Shown here piece by piece: positions 25,185 through 61,141 of a DNA stretch of 64,000 bases (position 1 is the first letter of the stretch; each line of letters begins with the position of its first letter). The position numbers were made by a program, and so were the translations under genes. Source of the stretch: a virus (taxonomy: Duplodnaviria; Heunggongvirae; Uroviricota; Caudoviricetes); IMG/VR virus record IMGVR_UViG_3300013137_000008; one strand, written 5' to 3'. The notes under the pieces are model-generated. The model did not search any database and was not told the origin of the DNA. It saw only the letters and a program-made list of their open reading frames with translations.

Positions 25185-25188
25185 TGTT

Positions 25189-25440
25189 TTATACCTCCTT
25201 TGTTCTTGGTTCTGAGTCTGTAAAAACAAACGCATAGCCTGTTTTTGTAGCTCCACCGATCAAGTCTCCAGTCCAGCCCATTTTATCTCTAAGGGCTACG
25301 GCTGCCTTAAGATGTGCCTGGTCTGTATCTAATTCATGTGGATAGGGTATGGTTACGTAATTGCCGTCACTGTCACAGGCTTTGATACGGCTTCCCCTCT
25401 GCTCGGTTACTGGTAGATACTTTGTGATGATTGCTTTCAT
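25189..25440 (-). CDS. Hypothetical protein
   Basis: 83-aa ORF. Confidence 0.35.
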   Translation of the reverse strand: MKAIITKYLPVTEQRGSRIKACDSDGNYVTIPYPHELDTDQAHLKAAVALRDKMGWTGDLIGGATKTGYAFVFTDSEPRTKEV

Positions 25441-28379: not shown

Positions 28380-28884
28380 CATTTATTATCATATTTGCTC
28401 ATTATGGAGCATACCTTATATTAAACGCCTTGTTTGACATTGTCAAGTATTATTCAATAAATCCTGTAAATATTTACTAAATTAAATAAAACAAATGTAC
28501 TATTAATTAATTATTTAATATACAGTCTCATATAAGACTGTTTTGGCAATATTCAATTAATATCGAATTATTTAATTTTCAGCCTTAATTTTGGTTGTGA
28601 CTGATCCAGTCTATAAATCCAGTCTAAGCGCATGACTGTATTTTAAGACTGTTTATCCTGTGGATTTATAGGCTATTTTACGCTGATTTATACGTGAATT
28701 TCAAGCCTATTTTACATAATAATTAGGTAATTAAATGCAGGTATCCAGTCGGTGAGTTTTGAAAAAGGCGGTCTCGTATGAGATTTTACGGCGGGTTTTG
28801 ACCTGGTTTTCAAGGCCTGGTGGAGAGCGGAAATTAGAGGGAAATTATCTTATATACTGTATATAGACTGTGAGTGGCATGTGG
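28380..28884. repeat. AT-rich non-coding region with repeated AGACTGT/CAGTCT words, an inverted repeat ACAGTCT-N6-AGACTGT and short direct repeats; candidate origin or regulatory region
   Basis: acagtctcatataagactgt (28522..28541), ccagtctataaatccagtcta, gactgtattttaagactgt, tatagactgtgag (28862..); GATTTATA x2; ctattttac x2. Confidence 0.5.
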
Positions 28885-29646
28885 TCACTGTAGGTTTAGT
28901 CGTGCCTCTACGTCTGCTTTACGTCTGCTCTTGCGTGGCTTGTGAATGAAGTTATCTATCTTGTTAGATGAGTAGGTTAGACTACTATGATGGGAACAGT
29001 GCGGACAACCTGTGCCATTCTGATTGCGGTTTGCTATGATTGCTTCATAAGGATGTCCATTGGGGCAAATCCAATGAGCTAATTTATGGGAATAAGGTGA
29101 GTAGTCATTGGGCGTTAAGGCATTGAGTTTATAATCCCATTCTTTTGCGAGGTTTGGGTTTTGTGTAGCAAGTGAGATGGTAGGGTTGATGTTCCGTTGT
29201 TTATGACACTTTGGACATTTAGAGCCATTGACTCTATGCGCTACCCGTGTCTCCCAACTGTTGCCACATTTACACTTCCACCAGTATGATCGGCTACTTT
29301 TGGGAGATACTGCCTGAGGGTTGACTTTGTTTTTACTGTAATCCCATTCCTTTAACAATTCAGGGTACATAGATGCAAAATTATGTTCTTGGGTAGTGGG
29401 TTGGTTATGGCTACAGTATGGGCATCCACTTTTACCAGAGCTTTCCAATGTCCTTGAGAATATTCGTGCAGTGTATCTATGACCCTGTGGGCAAACCCAC
29501 CTTGCTTTTTGTCCACTACCATAGGTAATAGTATCTAAGTCAATGTGTTTGTTGTGTTCAAAATCCCATTCCTTAATGAGTTCGGGAAATTTGTCTTTTA
29601 ATAAGTTATCTTTCATTTCATGTCTCCTTATAAGATATAGTAACAT
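28885..29646 (-). CDS. Protein with three treble-clef zinc-ribbon repeats (DUF4379-like)
   Basis: Three repeats of KEWD(F/Y)..N...W.C..GH.(Y/W)......R...G.GCP.C. Confidence 0.65.
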   Translation of the reverse strand: MLLYLIRRHEMKDNLLKDKFPELIKEWDFEHNKHIDLDTITYGSGQKARWVCPQGHRYTARIFSRTLESSGKSGCPYCSHNQPTTQEHNFASMYPELLKEWDYSKNKVNPQAVSPKSSRSYWWKCKCGNSWETRVAHRVNGSKCPKCHKQRNINPTISLATQNPNLAKEWDYKLNALTPNDYSPYSHKLAHWICPNGHPYEAIIANRNQNGTGCPHCSHHSSLTYSSNKIDNFIHKPRKSRRKADVEARLNLQ

Positions 29647-29830: not shown

Positions 29831-30013
29831 ATGATGATGGCTGCCATTGGTGGCGTAGTCTGCTTCGTGGTTATCAAGGAAGTCATGGATGGGCAAAATA
29901 CCACGAGTTGGTCTACTTTGGAGATCACTCTGTTCACGACTATCGTCCCGTTATTGGCTGCTATCGGTGTCATCTTCGCTATCTTCGCAATCTTCCAGCG
30001 GATGACTCGCTAA
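29831..30013 (+). CDS. Small membrane protein
   Basis: Two TM helices; GGTGAG upstream. Confidence 0.3.
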   Translation: MMMAAIGGVVCFVVIKEVMDGQNTTSWSTLEITLFTTIVPLLAAIGVIFAIFAIFQRMTR

Positions 30014-30121
30014 CACCAGGCGTAAAAAAGTGGTTCGTGCAAACGATAATGAGAGCGATTACTTCGGTAGTCGCTCTCGCCATGTTTTTTGTGGTATAAT
30101 AAGGTAAAAAGGAGTCATGGA

Positions 30122-30328
30122 ATGTTAAAGCCTATAATGATATCGTCAGTGGTGTCAATGGTGGTGTATGCAACTCTTTCTTGGGTGGTGAAGTTCTTGG
30201 GGTGGACTGGGAGCAATGATGTGGAGTCGGCGTTGATTCAAGTGGTACTTCCTTTGGCAGTGGCTATCTGTGTTATTTTTGTTGTGTTTGGCTTTGTGAT
30301 AAAAGTTAGAAAAGCTGGAAAGGGCTGA
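30122..30328 (+). CDS. Small membrane protein
   Basis: Two TM helices; AAGGAG upstream; start at MLKPIM. Confidence 0.4.
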   Translation: MLKPIMISSVVSMVVYATLSWVVKFLGWTGSNDVESALIQVVLPLAVAICVIFVVFGFVIKVRKAGKG

Positions 30329-30506
30329 TAGGGCGTAGTCAGTCTTTAAAGGATTAGCTCCTTGCTTGAAAAAGTGAGGGGCTTTTTTCTTTTCAACTGC
30401 GGTTGAAAAGCATATCTTTTCCCTAATTGCGATTAAAAAGCATAGGTTAGCGACAAAAGACTTAAAAAACGTTGACTTATGTAGGTATAGTATGTATATT
30501 GGAAAT

Positions 30507-30656
30507 ATGGGTAAGTACTGTCCATTTTGCAGGTGTAAGCGTCCTCTTACCAAAGCAGGGGTGGCATATGGGGCGCATGGGCAGGCTGTGCAGAGGTGGA
30601 AGTGTACTAATAAAATGTGTAGCAAATTTACTATTAAGCCCTTAAGTGTGAAATGA
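30507..30656 (+). CDS. IS1595/InsA-like zinc-ribbon small protein (49 aa), candidate regulator
   Basis: MGKYCPFCRCKRPLTKAGVAYGAHGQAVQRWKCTNKMCSKFTIKPL. Stop overlaps the ATG of the giant gene. Below the ORF-track size cutoff. Confidence 0.5.
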   Translation: MGKYCPFCRCKRPLTKAGVAYGAHGQAVQRWKCTNKMCSKFTIKPLSVK

Positions 30657-33600
30657 GACACAGAAGTTTAAGTATATTATGCCTGCTGATTATACTCTTT
30701 AGTATAGTTAGTGTCTTTCTTGTTCCGCCTGCTCCTGTATATGCGGCATCGGATTTATATTGGGTGCATACTTTAGGTGGAAGTGGTACTGGGTCATGGT
30801 CTAATACGTCTTGTTGGTCAGCTACTTCAGGTGGTGCTGGTGGGGCTGGAGTACCTAACTCTACAGTAAATGTACATTTTGATAATATGTCCTTTAATGC
30901 AGTAGGACAAATTGTAACAGTCGATGCCACGGCTAATTGTTTATCAATGGATTGGACTGGAGCGAGTAATACACCAACACTGGCGATGGGCACCAATACT
31001 ATAAACATATATGGTAACTGCACGTTTATTGCTGTAATGGCACAGACATCATCTGCTGGCGGCACTCTGGATATCAAAGGTGTTTCAACAATAACAACCA
31101 ACGGGCTATCCTTGACCTCTGGAGTAACAGTGGGTGGAGCAACAGTTACTATCCAACTTGCAGACGCTTTAACTACTTCAAGAGATTTTACATTTACTGG
31201 TGCATCAACAAGTCCAACATTTCAAACGAATAACAATACAATGAACGTAAGGACGTTCCAAATCACCGGAAGTGGTGCAGGAACAAAAACATTAACTCTT
31301 GGCAATTCAACAATTAACATTGCGTCTAATGTGGCTGTGGGATGGGATTATGCAGGTTCAAATCTAACCTTAACAGCGAATACTGCAATAATCAATATTG
31401 CAGGAGCAGGGAACTTCAATGGTGGTGGTATTACAACCTACAACACAGTAAACCTCAATGGCACAGCCCATACCGTATCGGGCAACAATACCTTTGTAAA
31501 CTTCTATAGGAATGGGACAGCCACCAAAACAGACACATTGACATTAACCAGTGGCAGTACACAAACCGTAACAGGTGAATGTGGATTAAAAGGCAATAGC
31601 GCTACAAACAGACTTTTGGTGCAAAGCTCAACTCTTGGCTCAGCGGCTACCATTGATTTAAGTGCAGGTGGGAAATGTAAGACAGCCACAACCACACAGA
31701 ACGTAGACTTCATGGATATAACCATGTCCAATGGAGCAGCCAATGAAAGAGACTTATCTGCCATAACAGGATTAAGCGGTGACTGTGGTGGGAATACAGG
31801 GATAACCTTAACTACAAGCGCAACTCAAACATCAGGCACTACGGATACATGGTCAACAGCAGGCAAATGGACAAGCCGTGTACCACTTCCACAGGATGAT
31901 GTTAATTGCTCCCATAACTCTACAGTAGATATGCCAAGAATTGGGAGGAGTATTACATTTAGCGGGACACCAACGATAAGTTTGTCAAATGATATAAACA
32001 ACTATGGGTCATATACATTGGTAAGCGGAATGACCTATACGCACAATAGCTGGTACAATTATTTTAGAGGTAGGGATTCTTATACATTAACAAGTAATGG
32101 AAAGTCACTCTACTCTGTAAATATATCTGCCCCAACAGGGACATATCAAGTGCAGGATGACTTTACATGCAATACCAGTGGAGCGTTAAGTATTTCCTCA
32201 GGAACTTTTGACGCTAATAACAAAAACATTACAGCAGGACGATTTCTTGTTAATGGTTCATCGACCCGCACCGTTACAATGGGTTCAGGCACTTGGACAG
32301 CAAATAGGGCCACGGCAACAGATAAATGGGATGCCTCTACTACGACTGGACTTACTTTTAACGCAAATACATCTACTATAGTAATAACTAATTCATCGAC
32401 AAATGCGGAGAATTTTTATGGTGGTGGCTTAGCCTACAACAACGTAACCGTCCAGGGAGCAGGAAACTACGCCTTAACCATCAGTGGCAACAATACCTTC
32501 AACACTTTTACTGTGGATAGGTCAGTGGCGGCTAAGACGCTGACCCTGACAGCGGGTTCAAATACTACGGTCACAAATATGGTCTGCAATAAAAGCGATG
32601 CAAGATATTTGACTATCAATTCTACTGCTGGCACTGCATACCTCACAAAAGCTGGTGGTGGACAGTTAGGATTTACTAACCTTAATCTGTCGAATAATAC
32701 GGGTAATCCAGTCAATACATGGTACTATTCTCCTGAAAGCGTTATTGGTGCAAACGTAGTTAATTGGATATTGGACGCTCCACCTACAGTTACTACGGAT
32801 GGGGCATCGCCAATTGGAATGACCACTGCAAGTACAAATGGCACGATAACTTCACTAAACTTTGGCGGAAATGCCAATATTACAGGTGTTGATTGGGGCA
32901 CAGTTACAGGTGTATATGTACGTACACAGAATACTACTGGGGATTTTGGAATAGGCACATTCTATGAAAATTTGACTGGTCTGATTCAAGGTGAACTGTA
33001 TTACTTTAGAATGTATGCTTATAACGATGATGGTAGGGGAGATGGCGTTGAAAGTACATTTTTAACTAAACCTGTTGAACCAAATACATTCACCACTACA
33101 ACTTTAAATTCAACTGCAATCACCTGTAATTGGAATAAAGGACTTGGTGCGCTTAATACGGTAGTAAGATATAAGTTGGGTGGTTATCCCACAGATACAA
33201 CTGATGGTACTTTGGGTTATAATGGAACGCTGGCAACTTATCAGCAAAGCGGACTGGTTACTGACAATGTATACTTCTTCAGGGCATGGTCATGGGCAAG
33301 TGAGGGTACACGGCAACAGTATTCTGATTTATATGCTGGTAATTATACGGTAACATCAGGTATCCCTACACTTACTACGATAGCAGCGTCAAGTGTTGAG
33401 GAGACTACGGCTACAACTACGGGAATTATCACGTATTCGTATGCTAATTACACAGTATGGGGAACTCAATATGGCCTATCGTCTGGCTATGGTGGTTGGG
33501 CAAACAATACTGGTATATCTACAACTGTCCCATATCCATTCAATGATAACCTTGCTGTTCTGTCACAAGGTTCGTTATATTATTTCAGGGCTTATGCTGT

Positions 33601-34114
33601 CAATATCGTTGGTACTGGATATGGAGCACAACGTACATTCTTGACTAAACCTGTTGAACCTACGGTGTTGATAGTCACTAATTCCGCTCATTCTGCTTCA
33701 TTAACATGGACTAAAGGCGCAGGTGCGCTTAATACAGTTATAAAAGCTAAGATAGACGGTTATCCGTCAACTGTAGCTGATGGTACTCTGGTTTATAATG
33801 GAACAGCAGCGTCCTGCTCATTTACTCCACCTCTATCTACAAAGACATATTACTATAGAGCATGGTCATGGGCATCTAATTCTACTTGGAATGTCTACTC
33901 GGATTCTTATGCTGATTCAAGTTCACAAGGATTGATGTCAGACTTTGTGAAGATGATCGTCTCTGTAGTCTTTATGGCTGTAATGATTATGGCAATGCTG
34001 TTCTTACTTACGGCTACTCCTCTTGCTACCAATGCCTTCGGGATGATTTTGAGTTTGATAAGTTTTGCGTTCATGACCTTTATCGGTATCGCTATTATCA
34101 ATGCCCTGCTATAG
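30653..34114 (+). CDS. Giant secreted surface protein: signal peptide, Thr/Asn/Gly-rich beta-solenoid-like region, fibronectin-III-like repeats, C-terminal TM anchor
   Basis: Signal peptide ending VYAASD. Repeated LYYFR.YA.N..G.G......T.P..P and W.KG.GA...V.......P.......YNGT......GL.....YYFRAWSWAS modules. C-terminal hydrophobic helices. Confidence 0.8.
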   Translation: MRHRSLSILCLLIILFSIVSVFLVPPAPVYAASDLYWVHTLGGSGTGSWSNTSCWSATSGGAGGAGVPNSTVNVHFDNMSFNAVGQIVTVDATANCLSMDWTGASNTPTLAMGTNTINIYGNCTFIAVMAQTSSAGGTLDIKGVSTITTNGLSLTSGVTVGGATVTIQLADALTTSRDFTFTGASTSPTFQTNNNTMNVRTFQITGSGAGTKTLTLGNSTINIASNVAVGWDYAGSNLTLTANTAIINIAGAGNFNGGGITTYNTVNLNGTAHTVSGNNTFVNFYRNGTATKTDTLTLTSGSTQTVTGECGLKGNSATNRLLVQSSTLGSAATIDLSAGGKCKTATTTQNVDFMDITMSNGAANERDLSAITGLSGDCGGNTGITLTTSATQTSGTTDTWSTAGKWTSRVPLPQDDVNCSHNSTVDMPRIGRSITFSGTPTISLSNDINNYGSYTLVSGMTYTHNSWYNYFRGRDSYTLTSNGKSLYSVNISAPTGTYQVQDDFTCNTSGALSISSGTFDANNKNITAGRFLVNGSSTRTVTMGSGTWTANRATATDKWDASTTTGLTFNANTSTIVITNSSTNAENFYGGGLAYNNVTVQGAGNYALTISGNNTFNTFTVDRSVAAKTLTLTAGSNTTVTNMVCNKSDARYLTINSTAGTAYLTKAGGGQLGFTNLNLSNNTGNPVNTWYYSPESVIGANVVNWILDAPPTVTTDGASPIGMTTASTNGTITSLNFGGNANITGVDWGTVTGVYVRTQNTTGDFGIGTFYENLTGLIQGELYYFRMYAYNDDGRGDGVESTFLTKPVEPNTFTTTTLNSTAITCNWNKGLGALNTVVRYKLGGYPTDTTDGTLGYNGTLATYQQSGLVTDNVYFFRAWSWASEGTRQQYSDLYAGNYTVTSGIPTLTTIAASSVEETTATTTGIITYSYANYTVWGTQYGLSSGYGGWANNTGISTTVPYPFNDNLAVLSQGSLYYFRAYAVNIVGTGYGAQRTFLTKPVEPTVLIVTNSAHSASLTWTKGAGALNTVIKAKIDGYPSTVADGTLVYNGTAASCSFTPPLSTKTYYYRAWSWASNSTWNVYSDSYADSSSQGLMSDFVKMIVSVVFMAVMIMAMLFLLTATPLATNAFGMILSLISFAFMTFIGIAIINALL

Positions 34115-34162
34115 CGACAAATCTATTGACTTTTTATTTAAATTGTATGTATAGTAGAAAGT

Positions 34163-34309
34163 ATGGAACGGTATTGTCCTTTCTGCCGAAGTACGAAGCC
34201 CATGGTGAGGGCAGGGTTCTCTTGGGATAGGCATGGTGCTCACCAGCGGTGGTGGTGTAGGAATAGGGAGTGTAGAAGGTTTACCATTAAACCTCTGAAG
34301 AAGAAGTAA
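34163..34309 (+). CDS. IS1595/InsA-like zinc-ribbon small protein (paralog of 30507..30656)
   Basis: MERYCPFCRSTKPMVRAGFSWDRHGAHQRWWCRNRECRRFTIKPL; similar upstream promoter-like cassette. Confidence 0.5.
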   Translation: MERYCPFCRSTKPMVRAGFSWDRHGAHQRWWCRNRECRRFTIKPLKKK

Positions 34310-34438
34310 TCATGCCATATAAACGAATCGCCAACAAGATCTACCATTATAAGAATCATGGGTGGGTTTTGAAACAGAAATGCCAAAATGTCAACAACGC
34401 AAAGAAGGCTATGAGACTTTTGAGGAGTTTGGAAAAAC

Positions 34439-37400
34439 GTGAGGGGATTTAATCTCTTAGTTTTACTCACTTTACTATTGTTTCTATTCCCTTATCAGGT
34501 AATAGGAGACGATGGTGGGTATCAATTGGCAGTAGAATCGTTAGATAAAGGCGAGGGGTATTTTTATAAACAAACGGCAACTACTCCAAATCCTATTGTG
34601 AGTAATTCTTATGTAATAGGGCAGGAAGTAGTCGAAAAGCGTACAGAGAACTCTAAAACCACTTATTTAGGCAAGGTCGGAAATAAAGAAAAATATGCCC
34701 TTGAAGTTTCAATGGGGCCAATTCATTACAAGGATAACTATAATGACCCTAATGAACAATGGAAAGATATTGATTTAACATGGGAAAATGGGAAAATTAC
34801 TAAGGCTCCATATGAGTTGACCGTTGATGGGAATTCTATAACAGTCAGAGATAAAAAGACCAATTCTATTGTCGCGTTGACGTTATCAGAGATTGGGGGG
34901 AAATCTATTGGTAAACATTCCTTAGAATACTTAAAAGGGAAAGCAGTTGCAAAAGATATAGCATTAGATACAGACTTGGAAATTACAGCAACTAATACCA
35001 ATGTTCAGTTCTCGCGTATTCTTAAGACTAGTGCTGCTGCGAAAGAGGCTAAATTTGGTTTTTCTAAGGTGGGTGGTGGAATTTCTGTTAGATGTGTGGG
35101 TGAGGATAGTAGTGTTGGAGAAAACAAGAATATAAAGGTTGAAAGTAGTATTAAAGATGGTGTATTAACTGAGACTGTTAACGATGTAGGCCTAGCTTAT
35201 CCTGTTAAGATTGACCCTTCTATAACTGTGCAATTAGCATCAGCTAATGCGAGTTGTAATGTATACTGGGATACGGGATTCGCTTGGGCTTATGCGAGCG
35301 GGGTTTATTGTTATGTAGGGAGAACTACTTTTGGAACAAGAGAGCGTGATGGTGGTGGGTTATTATTTCAGAGTGTAAGCATTCCTCAAGGTTCCTCTAT
35401 TAGTACTGCCTATATCAACTTTACTGCTAGGTTAGCAGATATACAATTTACTACATATTCAAGGCTTACAGGTGAGGATGTGGATAATGCCCGTTTATTT
35501 GCGAATTTGACTGATTACCAGACTAGACGTGGTACTGCTGTAGGTGGAGCATCTAATATTTATCTTACATCAGCAAATGTGTCGTGGACAATGGATGGAT
35601 GGACAACTGTAAATGCGACATACCAATCTCCTAGTATAGTTACAATAGTGCAAGAGATTGTATCAAGGGTTGGTTGGGCAAGCGGTAATTCCATGAATAT
35701 ATTTTTTGACGATCATGAATCTCGTAGTTCGTCAGACAATCGTGTTAGGCGTGCGTGGAATTTTTATGATGATTCATCTAAATCCCCAAAATTGTATATC
35801 GTTTATATCAGTAGTGCGATAGTATCTACCTTAAATGCAAGTGATGTTGAAGAGACAACTGCAACTGTAGGTGGCAATGTTACGGAAATGGGTGGGGGAA
35901 ATATTACATCTTATGGGATACAATATGGCCTATCAACAAGCTATGGTTCGTGGTGTAACCATACAGAAACAAAAACAGCAATATTTACATGGAACTGTTA
36001 TTTAGGGACTAACACTTCATCTTTAACGCAAGGGTTATTGTATTACTACAGGGCATGGACGTATGATAATACATATGGGTATGGGTATGGTTCACAACTC
36101 ACGTTTTTGACCAAACCTGAAGCCCCAACGGGGTTTGTTTGTACCACGGTTAACAGCACGGCTATTTCATACGTATGGGTCAAAGGTACTGGGGCAGATT
36201 ATACGTATATAAGGTATAAGGATGGTGGATATCCTGCTAATGTTGCTGATGGCATAGAGTCGTATAATGGGACGGGAACGTCAAATACACAATCTGGGTT
36301 GACTGATGGGCATACATATTATTTCAGGGGATGGTCATGGGTTTCTAACACTACATTAACACAATATTCTGATGGGTATGATGGGTGTTTTTCAACCACT
36401 TATGACCCTCCTATAGTGACTACTACAGCGGCATCTTTAGTAGAGGAAACCACAGCAACTACAGGTGGTAATATTGTATCATCTCCATTTGCAATAACTA
36501 CATGGGGTGTTCAGTATGGCACTACCAGTTCGTATGGTTCGTGGGCAAATACATCGAGCAATCCAGGTTTACCATACGCATTTTCAAAGAACCTTACTTC
36601 TCTTTCAAAAGGCACGTTCTATTATTTCAGGGCGTTTGCTGAACATGCTTCGGGTGCTGGTTATGGTGCTCAAAATACTTTCTTGACTAAACCTGACCCA
36701 CCTGTGCTGGCGGTCACAGCATTAAATGCTTCAGCAGTTACGCTATCATGGATAGTGGGTGATGGTGCGGACTATACATATATAAGGTATAGGACTGTTT
36801 CATGTCCTGCAACCATAGCAGATGGTACACTTGCAGGAAATATATCTGCTCCTACAGCATCACTGATTGTAAGTAACCTAACTACGTTGCAGACCTATTA
36901 TTTTTCAGCATGGAGTCATTCTACTGGTGGGGCGACCTATCAATTCTCGGATACATACGATTGTGAAAGTCAGCAAGTACCAGGTTTACCTACTGTGACT
37001 ACCAACGCTCCTACAGGATATGGAAATGATTGGGCAAGTGTCAGTGGAACACAAACAGGTGGATACCCTGTTTCAACACTATTTGGGTTTCAATATGGGA
37101 CTACAATAGGGTATGGGTCATGGTCAAATACTACGATTACAGTAGCTGGCGGGAGCTTTTCAGCTACAATTTCAGGATTAACTCCATCATCCTCATATCA
37201 TTACAGGGCGTTTGCGGTGAATCCTTACGGTGTTGGGTATGGCGCAGATATGACTTTTTCTACAGCAGGTACGGCTATTCTTTACGAGAATCATCAATAT
37301 GGATGTAATACAACGTGGTCACAGGTTTATGATACTGATTCTACTTCAATTTCTGCTAACTGGACTTCAGGTACGATTGCTTCATATTCAACTCAACCTG

Positions 37401-39133
37401 TGTTTGGTAATAACTGGACTGCCCAGACGTTTACTACCACTCAGGCACATTCAGTTCATCAAGTAGTCCTGTGGATGTCACGTACAACTACAGCAGCAGC
37501 AGGGTATGTTTACGTTTCAATACGTGAAGCGACTACAGATAACGTAACCTCTCCAGATTTGGGATTAGGATTATATGCAATAGCTTATGTGCCTGCAAAT
37601 GGTGGGCCATGTGAAGTATCACTTGAAAACGAAATACAATTAGATGCAAGTAAAAAATATGCGATTGTGGTCAGAGCACCATCAGCAGACGCTACTAACT
37701 ATGTCTCAATATGGGGAAGCGCAGCCGCTACCTCTATCTATGCAACTGGCAATGCTATCCGTTCTATCACTGGTGGGGCATCATGGGTAACTCAAGACTA
37801 TGATGTGTTCTTCTCTATAATTGGGCGTCCGCAACCTATCTATGGTAATATTCAAGCGGCTCAATCCTTTACTGTTGGTACAACTCCTCATACGGCGTAT
37901 AAGGTTCGGTTGATTTTGGGCAGGATAGGACAACCTGGAAATATATATGTATCTATCCGCAACTATTCAGGTGGAGTGATATCAAATGCTGATTTAGCAG
38001 TTGTAGCACTAAATGGAAATGCAATTACTCTTGATAAGGCAATGTATGATTGTGTACTTGTGCCAGAAAAAAGTTTGGAGGCAAGTAAACAATACGCCAT
38101 TATAGTTTCAGCACCATCAGGGGATAGGTATAACTATATCTTAATGTGTGCGGATGTTGGAGCGGGTTATGCAGATGGAACGGCTCTGTTGTCTTCTGAT
38201 AGTGGACTTACGTGGGTTGCACAGGCTTATGATTATAACTTTGAGGTATGGGGCAATGCCTGTCTTAATGTCTTGAACGCAAAGGTTTTCCGCAATTATT
38301 TAGTCTCAGGTGACTGGCTGATTGTATCGGAAACCCTGAACGTATCTCCACCATACTATGATGCTAACCAAGACCCGTCAACTCTTTTTATTCTGAGTTT
38401 CATGGGATTAGCAGGGACTACGTATGCTTCCACTCCCTGTGAATTGTGGGAAAAAGGGCCGATAGCTATTTATTTGAATCCTACTCAGGCATCAGCCCTG
38501 ACATGGGGTGGAAATTACAAGGTACGCCTTAGTAATATCGGAGGCACTATCTACAGTGAATACGGGTTGATTTCAACTGACTGGAGTTCTTCTTCATTGG
38601 TGTATTTAGATAACTGGGTACGGTTGGTAGCAAAGGATATGGAATCTTACCAAACAACCCGCACAGGTACTACTGTAACTTATTTAACGTATGTTGCTGA
38701 CAAGGGCTATGTTCTGAATCAGGATGGTGGGGCGATTTTTAACCAGGCTTGCCCACGTCTTTCTTATGTACGTCCTGACCTATTCCAAATTACCTCAAAT
38801 CAACCAGACATAACCACTACCCCAGTAACCACTACAAGCGTTGACTATCATGTTATTCTTGGTTCGTATCTATCTGGTCTGATAGACCAAGGGGCAGGGG
38901 CAATGGGTATTGGGGATGCAAAGGCGGCGGGGGGGATAATGATAGTCGCAATCTACGCAATCATCGCCTTTGGGACTGTGATAAAAGGATTTGCGTGGGC
39001 TGGCATGATTGCAGCCTTCCCAATAATCCTTTTGGGAATGTACTACGGTTTATTAGATATGGGCATGATTCTTGTCATGCTTGTTATTCTCGTATTCTTA
39101 TTCGTGAGAGAATTTTTTATGAAAGGTGGATAA
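34439..39133 (+). CDS. Giant secreted surface protein with multiple FN3-like domains and C-terminal multi-TM anchor
   Basis: GTG start with GAGGAG SD; signal peptide; FN3-like YYFRAW motifs; shared module VQEIVSRVGWASGNSMNIFFDDH; C-terminal TM helices. Confidence 0.8.
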   Translation: MRGFNLLVLLTLLLFLFPYQVIGDDGGYQLAVESLDKGEGYFYKQTATTPNPIVSNSYVIGQEVVEKRTENSKTTYLGKVGNKEKYALEVSMGPIHYKDNYNDPNEQWKDIDLTWENGKITKAPYELTVDGNSITVRDKKTNSIVALTLSEIGGKSIGKHSLEYLKGKAVAKDIALDTDLEITATNTNVQFSRILKTSAAAKEAKFGFSKVGGGISVRCVGEDSSVGENKNIKVESSIKDGVLTETVNDVGLAYPVKIDPSITVQLASANASCNVYWDTGFAWAYASGVYCYVGRTTFGTRERDGGGLLFQSVSIPQGSSISTAYINFTARLADIQFTTYSRLTGEDVDNARLFANLTDYQTRRGTAVGGASNIYLTSANVSWTMDGWTTVNATYQSPSIVTIVQEIVSRVGWASGNSMNIFFDDHESRSSSDNRVRRAWNFYDDSSKSPKLYIVYISSAIVSTLNASDVEETTATVGGNVTEMGGGNITSYGIQYGLSTSYGSWCNHTETKTAIFTWNCYLGTNTSSLTQGLLYYYRAWTYDNTYGYGYGSQLTFLTKPEAPTGFVCTTVNSTAISYVWVKGTGADYTYIRYKDGGYPANVADGIESYNGTGTSNTQSGLTDGHTYYFRGWSWVSNTTLTQYSDGYDGCFSTTYDPPIVTTTAASLVEETTATTGGNIVSSPFAITTWGVQYGTTSSYGSWANTSSNPGLPYAFSKNLTSLSKGTFYYFRAFAEHASGAGYGAQNTFLTKPDPPVLAVTALNASAVTLSWIVGDGADYTYIRYRTVSCPATIADGTLAGNISAPTASLIVSNLTTLQTYYFSAWSHSTGGATYQFSDTYDCESQQVPGLPTVTTNAPTGYGNDWASVSGTQTGGYPVSTLFGFQYGTTIGYGSWSNTTITVAGGSFSATISGLTPSSSYHYRAFAVNPYGVGYGADMTFSTAGTAILYENHQYGCNTTWSQVYDTDSTSISANWTSGTIASYSTQPVFGNNWTAQTFTTTQAHSVHQVVLWMSRTTTAAAGYVYVSIREATTDNVTSPDLGLGLYAIAYVPANGGPCEVSLENEIQLDASKKYAIVVRAPSADATNYVSIWGSAAATSIYATGNAIRSITGGASWVTQDYDVFFSIIGRPQPIYGNIQAAQSFTVGTTPHTAYKVRLILGRIGQPGNIYVSIRNYSGGVISNADLAVVALNGNAITLDKAMYDCVLVPEKSLEASKQYAIIVSAPSGDRYNYILMCADVGAGYADGTALLSSDSGLTWVAQAYDYNFEVWGNACLNVLNAKVFRNYLVSGDWLIVSETLNVSPPYYDANQDPSTLFILSFMGLAGTTYASTPCELWEKGPIAIYLNPTQASALTWGGNYKVRLSNIGGTIYSEYGLISTDWSSSSLVYLDNWVRLVAKDMESYQTTRTGTTVTYLTYVADKGYVLNQDGGAIFNQACPRLSYVRPDLFQITSNQPDITTTPVTTTSVDYHVILGSYLSGLIDQGAGAMGIGDAKAAGGIMIVAIYAIIAFGTVIKGFAWAGMIAAFPIILLGMYYGLLDMGMILVMLVILVFLFVREFFMKGG

Positions 39134-40715
39134 TTTGTTACATAAACGACTTATATTAGCCATCTTACTTGTGCTGGCGTGTTTGCCAGTAGTGGTTTCG
39201 TATACTCCTGTTCATGCCACTACCATGGCAAATAATACGGCAACTTCAAATTTCTCAATCCGTCAGAATCCCACTACTTCTGTATGGACTCAGGGTACTT
39301 TCAACTATGTGGGATGTGTGCGGGGTGACAATGACACTAGATACGGTATAGGAATACGTTTTTCCGCCGTTGCTATTCCACATGGGGCAACTATTGACTC
39401 TGCTCATTTAGTGGCAACTTCGGCGTCCTCTTTTACTCAGGATACAGTCAATTCAATGATTCAAGGTGAATATGTGGATTCTGCGGCAGCGTTTTCTACA
39501 GTGGCAAACTATCAAGGGCGTACCCGTACTCCAACGGCAGTTGCATGGAATGGAATAGAACATTGGACAATGGGTACTCAATATTCATCTCCCGATATCT
39601 CTGAAGTGATAGAGGAAATAGTGGGGAGGGCTGGTTGGGTTTCGGGTAATAACATGGTTTTGTTCTGGGATGACCATTTGGCTAACTCCTCTCAAGGTTC
39701 ATATACTCCACCGTGTGTACGTGGTGGGTCAAGTTATCTTCTGATGGTGGAATACACAGCGGCTACAACAGTCAGTCATGCAAATGTGACTACTAAAGAC
39801 GCTACTGACATTGGTAGCTCAACGGCAGTCCTAAACGCTTACGTAGATGAAGATGGTGGTGATACCAATGGTGTAGCTCTGCAATTTGGGTATGCTAACG
39901 CCACTCATGCTGCTAACTTTGCAGCGTATACACATTTTACAGCATGGTCTACTTCAAACTATACCACTGGTGAAGCATATAATTTAGCTGTCGGGTCATT
40001 AACGCCTTCAACTACTTATTACTTTAATACGCAGGGGCAAAACTCAGTTGGGTATACTTATGGTGTTGAGCAGACCTTCGTCACGCCTGCTTCATCCACG
40101 GTATTGACACCATCAAACTTTATCATTCTACCTTCAAGCACGTCTGTTGATTTGCAGTGGTCTAAACCTGCTGGATTCAGTGAAAGCCGCCTGTATTTCA
40201 AATCTGGCTCTATCCCGTCTTCTAACACTACGGTTGATCTTTTGTATAGTGGTGTAAATAACTATTACACTCATTCATCGCTTACATCGGGTACTACTTA
40301 CGGGTATTTGTTGTACGGGTATGAATCGGGAATATGGTCAGCATCGGCTTCAGGCATTATTACAACCAAGGGTACTTCCACTGGTACTGGATTTAATACA
40401 CCAACTGTCCCGACTAACTGGTTTATTGATACTGAGTATACAACTCAGAACACAACTTTTTATTATGACATAGTAAATAACCTTGCAGATTCGTTTTCAA
40501 TGCCAAGGAATACAGCATGGGCTACATGGGCACTTTGCCTTGCGATGTTCCTCGGGTTTTTGATTTGGAGTGCATCCAGAAGCATGGTTGCGACTACAGG
40601 AGCGGTATGTGTGGGTGTTATAATCGGAAGTTTGCAACATTTGATTCCAATGTATATGATGTTGCTTGTTTTGGTATTTGGGATTAGTATAATTGCAGTG
40701 AGGGAAAGAATTTGA
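39126..40715 (+). CDS. Secreted FN3-like protein with C-terminal TM anchors, homologous to modules of the upstream giant proteins
   Basis: Signal peptide; IEEIVGRAGWVSGNNMVLFWDDH module; 8-nt overlap with the upstream gene. Confidence 0.7.
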   Translation: MDNLLHKRLILAILLVLACLPVVVSYTPVHATTMANNTATSNFSIRQNPTTSVWTQGTFNYVGCVRGDNDTRYGIGIRFSAVAIPHGATIDSAHLVATSASSFTQDTVNSMIQGEYVDSAAAFSTVANYQGRTRTPTAVAWNGIEHWTMGTQYSSPDISEVIEEIVGRAGWVSGNNMVLFWDDHLANSSQGSYTPPCVRGGSSYLLMVEYTAATTVSHANVTTKDATDIGSSTAVLNAYVDEDGGDTNGVALQFGYANATHAANFAAYTHFTAWSTSNYTTGEAYNLAVGSLTPSTTYYFNTQGQNSVGYTYGVEQTFVTPASSTVLTPSNFIILPSSTSVDLQWSKPAGFSESRLYFKSGSIPSSNTTVDLLYSGVNNYYTHSSLTSGTTYGYLLYGYESGIWSASASGIITTKGTSTGTGFNTPTVPTNWFIDTEYTTQNTTFYYDIVNNLADSFSMPRNTAWATWALCLAMFLGFLIWSASRSMVATTGAVCVGVIIGSLQHLIPMYMMLLVLVFGISIIAVRERI

Positions 40716-41041
40716 GTTGGAGAGTAATTACAGCGTTACTGTTCTTGTATGTGATGGTCGTTCTCTTATCAGGAGTAATGACCGAGGCGTATTATGGCGA
40801 TAATGCTACAACCATTGTAAGCCTTATCATTCGCCCACAAACCCCTTCGTATACTAACCCTGTAGGTGGTATTTCGTCTACATTTTCTGTTACGTCAGCA
40901 TGGATTGGGGCGTTTTTCCAAGCATTGTTCTTAGACTTTCCGATTTTCGATGGCCCGTACCAGATAGTACGTATCCTAATTTTAACTACAGCCATGGGCG
41001 TACTCGCCTACCAGGTAATTTCAGGGATTAAACCAGGATGA
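40712..41041 (+). CDS. Small membrane protein
   Basis: N- and C-terminal TM helices; 4-nt overlap. Confidence 0.45.
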   Translation: MSWRVITALLFLYVMVVLLSGVMTEAYYGDNATTIVSLIIRPQTPSYTNPVGGISSTFSVTSAWIGAFFQALFLDFPIFDGPYQIVRILILTTAMGVLAYQVISGIKPG

Positions 41042-41084: not shown

Positions 41085-42056
41085 ATGGGTAGGGGTTTAG
41101 GATGGTCAAAAGGGTTAACTAAGGAAACCAGTCCAAGTGTTGCTGCAAGGGCAGCTAAAATAATCGGCCATAAGACATGGAATGAAGGTCAAACTAAGTA
41201 TACTAATCCAAGTATCATGGCACAGGCGAAAAAGATGGCAGGAAGAACTAAAGAGACTGACCATGGCATAGCTATAAGGGTCTTAAAAATAACGGGTAGA
41301 ACTAAGTCAAATTATGAATATTTATTAGGAATGTCTAAAAAACGAGAAGGTTTAACCAAGGAGAGTACTCCTTGGTTAGCAAGAATGGGATGGAGTAAGG
41401 GGCAAACAAAGGATACTAATCCAAGTATTGCAAAGGCTACTATTAAACGACAAGGAAGAACTAAAGAGAATGATTTAGGAATGCTGTCGCAGTCAATTAA
41501 AATGACTGGTAGGACTAAAGAAACGCACGAAGGTATTCGTAGAGGCGTAGAGAAGAAGAAAGGAAGGACTAAGGAAAATCATAGTGGGGTTAGATCACAT
41601 GCCATTAAAATGGCTGGCAGAACTAAAGAAACGCATGATGGTGTTCGTAGGGGGGCAGAAAAGAGAAAGGGAAGGAATAAAGAGAACACACCTTATATGG
41701 CAACGATGGCAGTAAAGATTTCAGAATTATTTAAAGGTGATAAACATCCAAATTGGATTGATGGTAGATCATATTTGCTATATGGCAAAGATTTTACTCG
41801 AAGTCTACGGACGAAAATAAAAAAACGGGATGAGTACACTTGTCAATATTGCGGGATGTTGGAAGTTAATTATTGGCGAAAATTGGATGTACATCACATT
41901 GATTATGCTAAAACCAACTGTCCTGAATCCAATTTGATTACTCTTTGCCACACTTGCAATGTGCGTGTTAATCAAAATAGAGAGTTTTGGCAACGATTTT
42001 TCTCAGACAAGATATTGGTGAGGCAATTAAATGAAGGGAGTTTTATATATGGGTAG
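41085..42056 (+). CDS. HNH homing-endonuclease-like protein with N-terminal NUMOD3-like repeats
   Basis: Repeats GRTKET(H)xG(I/V)RRG; C-terminal HHIDYAKTNCPESNLITLCHTCNVRVNQNREFW, close paralog of the HNH region in 2719..3879; AAGGAG SD. Confidence 0.75.
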   Translation: MGRGLGWSKGLTKETSPSVAARAAKIIGHKTWNEGQTKYTNPSIMAQAKKMAGRTKETDHGIAIRVLKITGRTKSNYEYLLGMSKKREGLTKESTPWLARMGWSKGQTKDTNPSIAKATIKRQGRTKENDLGMLSQSIKMTGRTKETHEGIRRGVEKKKGRTKENHSGVRSHAIKMAGRTKETHDGVRRGAEKRKGRNKENTPYMATMAVKISELFKGDKHPNWIDGRSYLLYGKDFTRSLRTKIKKRDEYTCQYCGMLEVNYWRKLDVHHIDYAKTNCPESNLITLCHTCNVRVNQNREFWQRFFSDKILVRQLNEGSFIYG

Positions 42057-42065
42057 GTGTAAAGT

Positions 42066-42293
42066 ATGCTAATGCGACTTTTTCTTGGCTTGACATTGAT
42101 TTTGTGTTTTCTTGTTATTTATCCGAGCATGATGTCCATATTGACTGACAATGTGTCAGGTTTACTTACCTTAATCCCTGCTGGTTCGATGTCACCGTTA
42201 GAGCAGAGCATTTGGGGATTATTCCCTCTTGCCTTTTTGGTACTTGGCGTGGGCGGGTTTATCTGGCTGATTGTGAGAGATCGAGAGCGATAG
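42066..42293 (+). CDS. Small membrane protein
   Basis: Three hydrophobic segments. Confidence 0.4.
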   Translation: MLMRLFLGLTLILCFLVIYPSMMSILTDNVSGLLTLIPAGSMSPLEQSIWGLFPLAFLVLGVGGFIWLIVRDRER

Positions 42294-42320: not shown

Positions 42321-42749
42321 ATGAGTAAAGAGATGTATGTAACAGATAAAAAGGGCAATCGGTATGAAATCAAGTCCCATATTGACTATGGGGCGATTAT
42401 TATGACGTCTGTTTTACCTGAGTTAAAACCCATAGATAGTTTGTGTATTGCAAGAGATGGACTAATCTTCGGGAAATGGCGAGACCCTGATTATCGAAAC
42501 TCCGCTGCTATAGATGATTGTAGGATGTTGAAGTGGGAAGAATTTTTAAGGCAGGGGTGGTTACTGCCCGAAGTAGATAAGATTTACGGTTTTGTCCACC
42601 CGAATAATGTCGCTTCGATTAAATGGGTATTGTCAAGGGGTGGGTATCTAGATGGAAAACATGAGATAGATGGAGTAATATACGATAAGTATGTTGTACC
42701 TATAGATGCCATGGTTAAGATGGCTGAGAAAATTAAATGTATGGTTTGA
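42321..42749 (+). CDS. Hypothetical protein
   Basis: 142-aa ORF, coupled to the giant gene. Confidence 0.45.
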   Translation: MSKEMYVTDKKGNRYEIKSHIDYGAIIMTSVLPELKPIDSLCIARDGLIFGKWRDPDYRNSAAIDDCRMLKWEEFLRQGWLLPEVDKIYGFVHPNNVASIKWVLSRGGYLDGKHEIDGVIYDKYVVPIDAMVKMAEKIKCMV

Positions 42750-45700
42750 ATGATGAACCTTTATACTTTCGTGGAAGACGATATTGTATAGGGAAATTAT
42801 GCTTTACTGGAGCAGTCGGGGCAAGTGGCCCTGATTTAATGCTATATACGCCACCTTCAATCTATTCAACTCCCTCTTCAACCCCGTCAGCACCTGCTGC
42901 TCCCGCTGAACCCGTATCCTCGCCAGTGCCTACGCCTCCGTCTGATTCTTTAGACTCTACTTTCCGTAGGACTCAGCAGGTATCTGGTGGAGCTAGTGGT
43001 GATGTTTACAGGGAATCTTCAGAATCAGTCGCAAGGATTGGGGCAGGGATGGGTAAAGGTGATGTGGGACAGTCAAAACAGCTTCTTTCAAAGGAAGAAG
43101 AAGCACGACAGATTCAACGACTTGAGAATTTGCCTCATACTTGGGCAGAAATGGTATCTCAAGACCCATATGTTTTGCTGAGACCTGATGCGGAAGCAAG
43201 GTTGGCTGTCTTACCTGAAAGTGAGAGACCGAAGATTACTTATCCTGTAAACGATAGTGAATTAGCACTTCTAAAACAGCAGGCGGCTAAGTACGGGACT
43301 TCCGAAGATGAAAAAATCGTTCAGACTGTAATGAACATTATGCAGTCGGATTGGAGTCCATCTGCTACAATGCCATCAGATTTACTCAATCTTCCTAAGA
43401 CGTACGGTGAACTTGCTGTTATAAAACTGGGAATCTTAAACAATAGTCCTAACAATACGTGGACTTTGTCAACGGGGCAAAAGGTGACTCTCCCTAAATC
43501 TGAATATGTAAATCAGGCTATCTTGGACAATACAACTTACACATACAGGCAAATGGGTGAATCTGAGATACCAAGGTCAAAAACTGAGCCATCGACAGGA
43601 GTGTTCTCACCTAACCCCAATGCTTTTGGGTTATGGACGCCTCTTTCTGATGAAGCTCGATATGACAGCAGAATAGTAGACGCTCTCGATAAATCCAAAT
43701 ATCAGAGCGCACTTAACATCGTAGATAAGCTCTCAGAACCTTGGGGTGCAAGGCCAAGTGGTGCTGGTGGAGGTGGTGGTGGAGCAGTGGGTAGCTCTGG
43801 GACAATGGGTAGTGGTGGAATAACTATACCTGGGGTTACGGTTAATGTCGCTCCAACTACGGGCGTGGTTACAGTTTCATCACAAGGGCAAGAAAGAGTT
43901 ACGGGTGTTGCTGATACAGGCACAGCGTTCCTTACAACCCAATCAATGAAAGAAGCAGCAAAACAGGCCGGATATGGACTATTAAGCGCAGAAGATGTAA
44001 AAAATGTCTATGATAAGGCAGAACAATTACAGAAATGGCAGGCTGAACTTCCAACGGCTAAGAACAAAGTAGAAATCCAACGGAATATAGATGAAGCGCA
44101 ATCATATCTTTCTAAGGTAGTAAAAGCGAATACTCCACTTACGCCTACACTACTCGTAGATGCAGTTGAATCGTCCATTCGAAATAAAAGCAATCCTGCT
44201 CAAGAATTGGCAAATGATGGACTTACAAGGGCTGCTGAACAGGCTGGTGGACGTGAAATAAAAGATGGTGTGTGGGAAACCAGAACTTCTACAGCAAAAT
44301 ATATGGATGCCCTTCAAGAGTTTTTAAAGGGTGTACAGGGCATAGAGAGGGAAGCCCCATTCAAACAGAAAGTTTTCTCGGATGCTCAACAGGTAGCACA
44401 GGACAATGACGAGGCTAACGCTGTGGATAAAGGCAATAGGCCTACAGACCCTGTAAAAATAATGGAATCATGGAGATACACAAAAGAAGCAGCCCAACTT
44501 CGTGACAGCAAGGGCAATAACTTAACGGGTGAAGCACTTTCAAGAGTAATTGAGGGTTGGGGCAAACAAAGGACAGCCGAAGGCGGCTCACCAATAACCT
44601 ATGTTCAATATGTCCCTGTTGGTCAGACTATAGAAAATGGAGTAGTTAAATTAGTCTATGATTGGCGTTCAGTAGATGAAAATAACAAACCATACGAATA
44701 TGGTGTAATACAGCGTCCTATCTGGTGGGATATGAGCACTGGCAAAATCTTGGTTACAAGCAAGGATTGGCGTCCTGACCGCAAACTTCAGAACTGGCAG
44801 ACTTTTGATGAGTTTGCTGAGGCAGTTGCAAGGGGCGAAATAGCGACTCCAAACAGAATACTTGATGCAAAAGCAAAGAAACTGGAGAGTATTCTTAAAA
44901 GTGCTGAATGGAATAAATATCTTAATGATTGGAATGGTTTTCTTAAGAACCCTGTAAAAGGTGATGAGCCAATAACGGATATTCCAGTAAGTGATTTGAA
45001 CATTGCTGACTTCGGATATAGATATGGTGCGTATTATGTAGATGATAAAGGGATTGTTGATTATAAAGGAATTGTTAAGGCATCTGAAAGGTACGAGGAT
45101 TCTCTTAATATAGATCAACCGTTAGATTGGGTATACATTTTGAGTGGGTCGTCCTATAAACCTGAGCCTGTACCAGTGACTGAGGCACAACCAGAGCGAT
45201 ATGTTTCTACGGGTACTACAGAGACTAAATTTGAACCAAGTGAGAAGATAGAGACTAAGCCATCAGGAGTAGTTTCTGTTGATATTGCTCCAAAAGTGTT
45301 TGAAACATCAGCATTAACACAAGAATCGGATGGACGTATATATAAGGCCAAAATAGTTATAACAGTAACAAAAGATAAGATAACTGAGACAAGATATGAT
45401 GATAAGGGCAACATAGATATCGGCGGGTCTTATGAGTCTCCTCTTGCTGCGGATACTAACAGTATTCCTTTCCAAAGCCTTGTAAGAACTATAGGGTTGG
45501 ATAGTGCTAATAAAGTTGTCAGTGATATGCAGCAAGCTGCCACTACCCCGTCTGTAATAACTCAAGAGGTGAGGGCTACAACTATTCCAATGTTGGTTGG
45601 GGAAGGTCAAGGCAGAAAGGTTGTAGAGCAAAGGGGTGACAAGGTAAGAGCAATAGTTTTTGATGCTAATGGTATTATACTATTTGATAATACGTACTCA

Positions 45701-54255: not shown

Positions 54256-54469
54256 TCATATTATTCCCCGAAATGGAAGCCTCACCGTCAGAAAGTTGGG
54301 CTTCCGTTTCATTATTTACAAGTATTTGTTCTGGGGTAAATGTAGCCCGATGGCAATCACGACAATAATAGCTTTGTCGCATTGAACCGCTATACCTCAT
54401 GCCGTATTTATTGAGCCTCTTTGATTTACACCTAGGGCATATCAACTTGATTTCCATATTGCACTCCAT
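54236..54469 (-). CDS. IS1595/InsA-like zinc-ribbon small protein, candidate regulator
   Basis: CPRCKSKRLNKYGMRYSGSMRQSYYCRDCHRATFTPE. Confidence 0.5.
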   Translation of the reverse strand: MECNMEIKLICPRCKSKRLNKYGMRYSGSMRQSYYCRDCHRATFTPEQILVNNETEAQLSDGEASISGNNMNGSIQC

Positions 54470-54592
54470 TTGAGTTCATCTATCGTAATAATATCATTCT
54501 TATAGTAGTCTGTCAAGTACTTTTAGATATAAATTGTTATCCACAAAAAAATGAAAGCGTCAGCTTTCTACTGTAAGTAGCATTTACTGATA

Positions 54593-54704
54593 TCTCTATT
54601 TACTGAATACTCTATTTACTGTAGGGTGAACGGTGGTTCATTACTGTGGTGAACGGTAGTTCAGCAGGGGGTGAACAGTGGTTCAGTAGTGAACGGTGGT
54701 TCAC
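54593..54704. promoter_or_regulatory. Candidate operator array: direct repeat CTCTATTTACTG x2 followed by four copies of the palindrome GTGAAC-N4-GTTCA(C)
   Basis: gtgaacggtggttca (54626), gtgaacggtagttca (54649), gtgaacagtggttca (54671), gtgaacggtggttcac (54689); GTGAAC and GTTCAC are reverse complements. Confidence 0.6.
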
Positions 54705-54827
54705 CACATAATATAACATGATTAAGGTAGTCAAGTAGGCTTGACTACTCAGTAGTTTTATGGGCAGTAGTTCTATGGGTGATACTACTGTTTGAGGTGC
54801 AGAAATTTGCGCCTAAAGTTTCTATAG

Positions 54828-54942: not shown

Positions 54943-54971
54943 ATAGCAAAACAAATAAAGATGGAGGAAAC

Positions 54972-59460: not shown

Positions 59461-59462
59461 AT

Positions 59463-60603: not shown

Positions 60604-60605
60604 CA

Positions 60606-61088: not shown

Positions 61089-61141
61089 CTATTGCATAGG
61101 CTGATAAAACATGGTATAATATTATACAAGGTGGTGAAAGA

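Follow-up and report, generated by a model that had tools for sequence, protein, structure and literature searches.

Why should a phage-like element carry several very large proteins that look built for export and for fixation in a membrane? The question is raised by the virus record IMGVR_UViG_3300013137_000008 of IMG/VR, of which we analysed a stretch of 64,000 nucleotides (the window). Its plus strand contains open reading frames (ORFs) for proteins of 1153, 1564 and 529 amino acids, here named A, B and C, at the positions reported in a preliminary description, which took them for one operon of giant secreted proteins, possibly serving receptor masking or adhesion through lysogenic conversion or, alternatively, making up unusual virion fibres. 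The conserved unit, as we have found, is not A–B–C; it consists of B, C, two small membrane proteins (D and D2) and a giant protein encoded further downstream. Conserved together and co-translated, B, C, D and D2 make up a set of membrane proteins that is core to a new family of elements. We propose, giving the proposal a probability of roughly 45%, that this set and the giant, cytoplasmic protein form the core membrane-rooted, glycan-binding adhesion module of an undescribed family of phage-like elements of ∼67–104 kb; the mechanism that we infer draws on topology and on one fold match. The features of the conserved unit are as follows.

34439–39133, plus strand: protein B, 1564 amino acids; signal peptide at residues 1–24 with a cleavage site of AXA type (between VIG and DD), five FN3-like domains (460–945), two beta-sandwich repeats (950–1270), a conserved C-domain (1271–1480) and a three-helix anchor (1490–1564)
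34601–35248, plus strand: N-terminal, strongly conserved tip domain of B (residues 55–270)
35291–35812, plus strand: DNRLRE/CBM96-like module of B (residues 285–458)
39126–40715, plus strand: protein C, 529 amino acids; signal peptide at residues 1–31, DNRLRE/CBM96-like module at 33–211 (nucleotides 39222–39758), two FN3-like domains (220–413), juxtamembrane stretch and three-helix anchor (430–529)
40712–41041, plus strand: protein D, 109 amino acids; N-terminal and C-terminal transmembrane helices and a conserved P-x-VGG loop; its start overlaps the stop of C
41085–42056, plus strand: HNH endonuclease, between D and D2
42066–42293, plus strand: protein D2, 75 amino acids, two transmembrane helices; positional counterpart of the genes for 98–112 amino acids that follow D in relatives
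42737–52675, plus strand: giant protein, 3312 amino acids, with neither signal peptide nor transmembrane segment; one HExxH motif at residue 2822 and a conserved core at residues 2024–2768

Homologues of B (131) and of C (34) present in databases are all metagenomic, with one partial protein labelled ‘Patescibacteria’. We read five related loci (L001, L002, L003, L004 and L089), four of them on contigs of 67–104 kb and one an 8-kb copy. The order of genes was the same in all five: one or two tiny basic ORFs, B (987–1539 amino acids), C (509–608 amino acids), two small transmembrane proteins and a protein of 2,893–4,040 amino acids, with the genes of the set tightly packed. The window and the related loci also have early genes in common, namely DnaB (40% identity), a DUF4379 protein (36–55% identity) and several small ORFs; together with the synteny, these genes indicate that the window and the related contigs belong to the same element family. 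L002 also has the HNH gene between D and D2, whereas L001, L003 and L089 lack it at this place; a homing insertion within a conserved module is therefore probable.

B and C overlap by 8 bases, C and D by 4 bases, and the three genes are translationally coupled. An operon of A, B and C was not confirmed in the form described: A is set apart from B by 324 bp that contain the second copy of a cassette with a promoter-like site and a small Zn-ribbon ORF. Conservation of D and D2 is weak yet recognisable. A 142-residue ORF separates D2 from the giant protein, for which we observed no match in Pfam, in PHROGs, among PDB sequences or by tblastn against GenBank phages, and in which neither DxDxD nor Walker-A motifs were found.

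Export and anchoring are the best-defined properties of the large proteins. Each of A, B and C has a charged n-region, a hydrophobic core and an AXA-type site, as well as two or three hydrophobic helices at the C-terminus. The signal peptides that had been described for all three were thus seen again, and they are not confined to this locus: both signal and anchor are kept in ∼35 of 40 divergent B homologues, while in C the cleavage site (between VHA and TT) is conserved across homologues as VHA followed by T. A lipoprotein nature of C was considered and rejected, as the cysteine of the signal peptide (candidate lipobox) is not conserved. No LPx[TSA]G, PGF or PEP motif was detected in A, B or C, and no SLH domain was found in them by Pfam; hydrophobic anchors in place of LPXTG or SLH signals had been postulated, and this part holds, but the anchors are not single, with two or three helices in each protein. 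An AlphaFold model of C (predicted local distance difference test, pLDDT, 79.7) shows the signal, a beta-sandwich of 180 residues, two FN3 domains, the juxtamembrane stretch and three C-terminal transmembrane helices. For the B family we used the AlphaFold model of a short member, P0023 (pLDDT 77.9), where the order is signal, beta-rich tip, a ∼180-residue sandwich as in C, FN3 domains, sandwich or sandwiches, C-domain and anchor, the last with three to four helices. The helices at the C-termini of both models indicate polytopic rather than single-pass anchors. The anchor of B ends in VREFFMKGG, a positively charged cytoplasmic end, and that of C in AVRERI, also positively charged; in C the anchor is conserved in sequence, with conserved polar residues in its helices. 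With a signal at one end and an anchor at the other, the body of each protein should be extracytoplasmic, a chain of beta-sandwich domains, and the exported, membrane-anchored, adhesin-like stalk that had been proposed is supported.

Repeated FN3-like domains were counted as proposed, four in A, five in B and two in C. They are beta-sandwiches of ∼90 residues that can be superposed on solved FN3 domains. The Pfam scores of PF00041 stayed below the cut-off of 25 bits in A (18.3 bits) and in B (23.2 bits), and C had no match; the C-family profile matched FN3 chains of titin and fibronectin at 9e-10 to 1e-6. In the B family the number of FN3 domains varies, and there are one or two further sandwiches. 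The ∼180-residue module that B and C have in common adopts the fold of solved DNRLRE/CBM96 members (PDB 8wab and 7vbo) at 13–14% identity. Two regions stand out by conservation. The tip of B, which very few members lack, shows a mean column identity of 58%, and its motifs HYKD.Y, EQWKDIDLT and APY are invariant; the juxtamembrane stretch of C is highly conserved as TDYT.QN.TF.YPIVNN.ADS.SMPR.TAW.

Two details of the preliminary description did not survive. The GW(A/V)SGN..DDH module, said to be present in all three proteins, occurs in B (residue 412) and C (residue 170), not in A. A high density of N-x-S/T sequons had been singled out too; A, B and C contain 36, 25 and 9 of them, versus 26.1, 16.5 and 7.3 in shuffled sequences (P-values 0.014, 0.016 and 0.30), with 3.1 per 100 amino acids in A. 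However, the mirror motif [ST]xN is nearly as frequent (33, 22 and 7), so the excess follows from a composition rich in N, S and T and is not a specific feature. The same control led us to reject archaeal-type N-glycosylation as an interpretation of the sequons.

Do these proteins belong to a known group of phages? There were no PHROG matches for A, B, C or D. In tblastn searches of 50,697 GenBank phage genomes there was no match for C, and for B just a short FN3 match of 31% identity; IMG/VR contained FN3-level matches and no true relatives, and PADLOC reported nothing for B or C. When the alignment of the B tip domain was used as query against 185,579 species genomes, a single partial match was obtained, to a 461-residue protein with the tip domain alone (L008:9770-11155, CAZYIC010000016.1). 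This protein is preceded by a 2044-residue ORF on a 21.6-kb contig of a metagenome-assembled genome labelled Gammaproteobacteria, and the contig may be mis-binned. Absence from the phage collections and the single match among species genomes indicate that the family falls outside the described groups of phages and is not common as a prophage. It recurs in sediment, wetland and other metagenomes. With B, C, D and D2 being core and in the same order in every relative read, and with this one partial match among species genomes, lysogenic conversion does not describe the locus well.

We consider the following sequence of events for the adhesion module. The Sec pathway would insert the large proteins into the cytoplasmic membrane of the host; stalks of FN3 domains would keep tip and glycan-binding modules at a distance of tens of nanometres from the membrane (a rough estimate), beyond the wall or S-layer; the anchors would pack with D and D2 into one complex, and this complex would bind an envelope polysaccharide. 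The carrier membrane, or a membrane-bearing particle derived from it, could then attach to target cells and so help the element to spread. Because all of the family has the set, in the same order, a role in this spread is the most likely one, and an optional trait for host conversion is the less likely explanation. The abundance of membrane proteins in the rightward block of genes agrees with an adhesion module as well, as do the lack of any Walker-A ATPase and of recognisable capsid, portal or terminase genes at 30–64 kb and the use of the head of A in a virion gene block elsewhere.

Several points weigh against this proposal. Signal peptides and transmembrane helices were judged by hydropathy, inspection and AlphaFold rather than by a dedicated predictor. 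Glycan binding by the modules of B and C is suggested by similarity of fold, and beta-sandwich folds are promiscuous; NCBIfam, including the DNRLRE model NF033679, gave no match at E ≤ 1 for A, B, C or the C homologue of L001. Structure comparison of the B tip and of the C-domain produced no informative match, and a homologue search with residues 2024–3023 of the giant protein found nothing. About 34 kb of the 98-kb source contig lie outside the window, and ordinary capsid and tail genes may be located there. Finally, the complex may stay on the carrier cell or may leave on a membrane-bearing particle, both being compatible with the results.

Where does this leave protein A? A and the genes that surround its start and that of B are listed below.

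29831–30013, plus strand: 60-residue protein with two hydrophobic segments, an acidic loop and a basic C-terminal tail, followed by a hairpin and T-run at 30050–30079
30122–30328, plus strand: 68-residue protein with two transmembrane segments, Shine-Dalgarno sequence AAAGGAG, an acidic loop and the basic tail KVRKAGKG, followed by a hairpin and T-run at 30356–30383
30472–30656, plus strand: first cassette copy, a sigma-70-like site TTGACT-17-TATATT (30472–30500) and a 49-residue Zn-ribbon ORF (30507–30656)
30653–34114, plus strand: protein A, 1153 amino acids; signal peptide at residues 1–31, head at 36–712 (nucleotides 30758–32788), four FN3-like domains (713–1090) and a two-helix anchor (1093–1153)
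34126–34452, plus strand: second cassette copy, TTGACT-18-TATAGT (34126–34155), a 48-residue paralogue of the Zn-ribbon ORF (34163–34309) and a 46-residue basic ORF (34312–34452)

A is a separate, movable gene, an add-on built from the same parts as B and C. Three observations lead to this conclusion: A has its own copy of the promoter cassette; it is located elsewhere in relatives; and its head is found without signal or anchor in a morphogenesis block of a tailed phage. As to the first, the stop codon of the 49-residue ORF overlaps the ATG of A (ATGA), and the 46-residue basic ORF of the second copy overlaps the start of B; small basic ORFs are found at the equivalent position in L001, L003 and L089. 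A general late-promoter motif common to the window was considered and rejected, the motif being present at the two cassettes only. As to the second, relatives that carry B have no A at the equivalent place, and full-length A homologues with 52–54% identity are elsewhere, P0157 at a distance of 27 kb from B on JAEAME010000129.1 and P0155 on L096 (SRR24319190_4396), beside genes for sugar epimerase and glycosyltransferase. The latter genes, ∼2.7 kb downstream of P0155 (L096:16277-23385), include one for a UDP-GlcNAc 2-epimerase-like protein, two for NAD-dependent sugar epimerases/dehydratases, one for a GT4 glycosyltransferase and one for a DUF2206 membrane protein; together they make up a cluster for glycan synthesis on a mobile, related contig. 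Proteins with DUF2206 come mostly from archaea, which would be relevant to the question of the host.

The head of A comprises ∼670 residues rich in T, G, S and N; it appears beta-like by lag-2 alternation, and periodicity analysis of the N-terminal region found no fixed repeat period that would support the beta-solenoid-like stretches of the preliminary description. The signal preceding it is cleaved, judging by hydropathy and inspection, between VYA and AS. The family of the head is large, with 12,887 cluster representatives at E < 1e-3 and 2,017 at E < 1e-30. Among the best 144 matches a signal was present in 53 and an anchor in 38; many forms of 600–770 amino acids begin with MADRY.V.G..G.WS and have neither. 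One homologue of this kind, ∼50% identical, lies between the terminase and capsid genes of a tailed phage (L091). We infer that A joins a head of fibre or adhesin type, used in virions without anchor, to FN3 pairs of B type and a membrane anchor. There was no PDB sequence match for the head, no Pfam match for ten members of its family and just one weak match in tblastn against the GenBank phage genomes; a large adhesin or fibre family without annotation such as this merits a Pfam entry.

The two small proteins encoded upstream of A recur near B in relatives: the N-terminus of the 60-residue protein is 87% identical to that of a protein upstream of B in L002, and a comparable ORF of 77 residues with two transmembrane segments, counterpart of the 68-residue protein, precedes B in L001. 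Both proteins could be procoat-like, holin-like or pilin-like.

What kind of element carries the module? The window divides at ∼29.7 kb into a left part of ∼90 mostly small leftward ORFs and a right part, the rightward block headed by the A–B–C region, and the sign of the GC skew flips at the place where ORF direction switches (near 28–30 kb). The leftward block encodes DnaB, an SSB-like ORF, HNH/NUMOD3 endonucleases and DnaJ; relatives of the element encode YopX and P22_Y8K6. Because of this early block of small ORFs, its HNH/NUMOD3 endonucleases, SSB-like ORF and DnaB, and the YopX and P22_Y8K6 genes of relatives, we characterize the element as phage-like and mobile, in agreement with the phage-like element of the preliminary description. 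Its expression signals are of bacterial type, with sigma-70-like sites, terminators made of a hairpin and a T-run, and Shine-Dalgarno sequences. In the window no tRNA genes were found, and a search of Rfam gave no RNA family. Other features of the window are the following.

2719–3879: HNH endonuclease with NUMOD3 motif
15443–16693: DDE transposase with SWIM zinc finger, within the early gene block
24661–25113: tandem repeat of 24 bp, 18.9 copies, 94% matches, inside a minus-strand ORF (24210–25256, 348 amino acids)
28639–28715: 34-bp repeat, 2.2 copies, in a gene-poor gap
28885–29646: DUF4379 treble-clef zinc-finger protein, three repeats (1.9e-53)
54300–54970: gene-poor gap with repeats of 16–23 bp at 54582–54686
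56495–57679: TelA
58708–59460: ThiF/E1-like protein, followed by a Cys-rich ORF of 69 residues
59666–60361: JAB protein
61539–62375 and 62950–63867: two SPFH/Band-7 genes, each after a small protein with an N-terminal transmembrane segment (61142–61552 and 62416–62895)

The DUF4379 gene is located directly upstream of the B operon, likewise in L002, L003 and L089, and its product is a candidate regulator of the rightward block. The 24-bp repeat translates into an eight-residue peptide repeat with a weak Pfam match (‘antifreeze beta roll’), and the short repeats of the two gene-poor gaps may be regulatory or origin-like. Genes of IS605 OrfB (TnpB-like), rve integrase and IS1595 were seen in relatives L001, L009 and L094. 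Most ORFs after the giant protein have an N-terminal transmembrane helix. Each SPFH gene with the small membrane protein before it resembles an NfeD–SPFH pair; for the whole group from TelA to SPFH (56495–63867) PADLOC reported a match to the E1 domain only. The plus strand between 30 and 64 kb lacks any Walker-A motif. Searches of the window, and of ∼60 kb of the relative JAEAME010000129.1, did not reveal any family of capsid, portal, terminase or tail proteins. In this relative a membrane-protein block (L009:4412-9324) includes a P-loop protein of 306 residues (Walker A GLEGSGKS, Walker-B-like VIMIDE) and a 642-residue protein rich in T, S, G and N with an N-terminal, signal-like hydrophobic segment. 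The P-loop protein has a weak ‘Zot-like’ PHROG match (E 0.002) with no support from Pfam and no homologue in the window.

Could the same proteins shield the cell that makes them? Here the CBM-like modules would coat the wall polysaccharide of the infected cell itself, resulting in receptor masking, superinfection exclusion or prevention of re-adsorption of progeny. Such a shield would have a topology identical to that of an adhesion module and would employ the same glycan-binding-like fold, and a tip conserved across the family is what one would expect of a protein binding a conserved wall polymer. Known exclusion proteins are, however, small and sporadic, whereas the set described here is core, syntenic and coupled to a protein of 3,000–4,000 amino acids, and its long stalks point away from the membrane that bears them; besides, the family was not found as prophages. 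Since the set is core and syntenic and the stalks project binding modules away from their own membrane, we favour the adhesion module over receptor masking and regard a surface shield as unlikely, though first among the alternatives.

Next, and unlikely as well, comes the possibility that B, C, A and the small proteins with two transmembrane segments are inserted in the membrane and then taken into a virion or vesicle, becoming the spikes of a particle that bears a membrane or is assembled at one. Every large protein combines a signal with a C-terminal anchor, as is known from virion proteins of inoviruses (pIII/pVIII), plasmaviruses and pleolipoviruses; a strong terminator comes after each of two genes for small proteins with hydrophobic N-terminus, acidic loop, transmembrane segment and basic tail; neither the structural genes searched for above nor a packaging ATPase was recognised, and IMG/VR holds no true relative; the Zot-like P-loop protein of the relative adjoins membrane proteins; and the head of A occurs in a virion gene block of a phage. 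On the other hand, no enveloped or membrane-extruded double-stranded DNA bacterial virus of ∼100 kb is known, budding would be hindered by the wall of a bacterial host, and the Zot-like match, as described, is weak and confined to the relative. That no capsid gene was recognised counts for little in dark-matter sequence, and a third of the source contig lies outside the window. In its most specific form, slightly less probable again, this alternative would make the element a new kind of large (∼70–100 kb) double-stranded DNA bacterial virus or vesicle-borne element with a host-derived membrane, assembled at the cytoplasmic membrane and not within the cytoplasm, with B, C and A as spikes, the small two-segment proteins as major membrane proteins and the giant protein either internal or delivered.

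A third possibility is that a tailed phage uses these proteins as ordinary tail fibres or for decoration, and that their terminal hydrophobic segments serve neither export nor anchoring. Structural proteins of phages often contain FN3 or other Ig-like domains; Foldseek matches in BFVD were to multi-beta-sandwich proteins of this kind; and stand-alone homologues of the A head exist without signal or anchor, one of them, as noted, between terminase and capsid genes. But the TM-scores of the BFVD matches did not exceed 0.29, and the PHROG and GenBank-phage searches failed to file B or C among ordinary tail fibres; a profile match of that kind had been named in the preliminary description as evidence against its own proposal. 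Unusual virion fibres, its other suggestion, may still account for these proteins, the head of A being ∼50% identical to the signal-less protein of the tailed-phage block. Above all, an AXA-site signal and a polytopic anchor, conserved across the B and C families, are unexpected in fibres assembled in the cytoplasm. On account of this family-wide conservation we prefer the adhesion module and consider ordinary tail fibres quite improbable. Least probable of all is a plasmid-like element that passes from cell to cell by conjugation or in another way and has these proteins as its surface adhesins, analogous to the aggregation and exclusion proteins at the start of enterococcal conjugation operons: large adhesin-like proteins do head a long unidirectional operon rich in membrane proteins, a relative has ParB_N and PAPS-reductase genes and virion genes were not recognised, yet VirB4-, VirD4- and relaxase-like genes, like any Walker-A motif, are missing from the plus strand at 30–64 kb, and the ∼90 tiny leftward ORFs, HNH homing endonucleases, YopX and P22_Y8K6 are phage-like.

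How does the proposed adhesion module compare with known systems? The Gram-positive conjugation operon of the plasmid pCF10, with PrgA, PrgB and PrgC, offers a likeness in its large mobile-element adhesins, encoded by the first genes of a long operon and using cell contact for spread; there, however, anchoring is by LPXTG and sortase and type IV secretion ATPases are present, neither of which was found here. The Inoviridae combine an adsorption protein that has a signal and a C-terminal anchor (pIII) with small proteins (pVIII) of the same build as the two encoded upstream of A, and the weak Zot/pI-like P-loop protein in a relative of the element adds to the likeness. Unlike the element described here, with its ∼70–100 kb, DnaB and SSB-like ORF, they have single-stranded DNA genomes of 5–15 kb; further differences are the polytopic anchors, the lack of detectable homology and the lack of a Zot-like gene in the window. 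Spikes of pleolipoviruses and plasmaviruses resemble B and C in type-I topology, with a signal and a C-terminal anchor, and have small integral membrane proteins alongside. Those viruses differ in having genomes of <20 kb and, as hosts, archaea with an S-layer only or wall-less Mollicutes, whereas the signals here are of bacterial type, and no relation in sequence or fold was found. Background on pleolipoviruses is available in PMC8875312 and PMC5867852.

Phage structural proteins decorated with FN3 or Ig-like domains have in common with A, B and C the tandem FN3-like domains, acting as spacers or weak glycan binders, and the head of A is ∼50% identical to a protein of a tailed-phage block; they are made in the cytoplasm, without signal or anchor. 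Among PHROGs and GenBank phages no relatives of B or C were found. As for DNRLRE/CBM96 modules, their carrier here, encoded by a mobile element, is anchored in the membrane and is not an enzyme; identity is 13–14%, and NF033679 gives no match.

It is already known that mobile elements encode surface adhesins. No family of phage or plasmid proteins described so far corresponds to the set found here. An architecture that combines a Sec signal, a conserved tip, a CBM96-like module, an FN3 stalk and a polytopic anchor has not been described, nor has the fixed partnership of such proteins with two small membrane proteins and a giant protein as the core module of an unclassified element family. If the complex is an attachment device, it would give a large mobile element of bacteria a hitherto undescribed route to the next host; if it is carried on a membrane-bearing particle, the family would constitute a new class of bacterial viruses.

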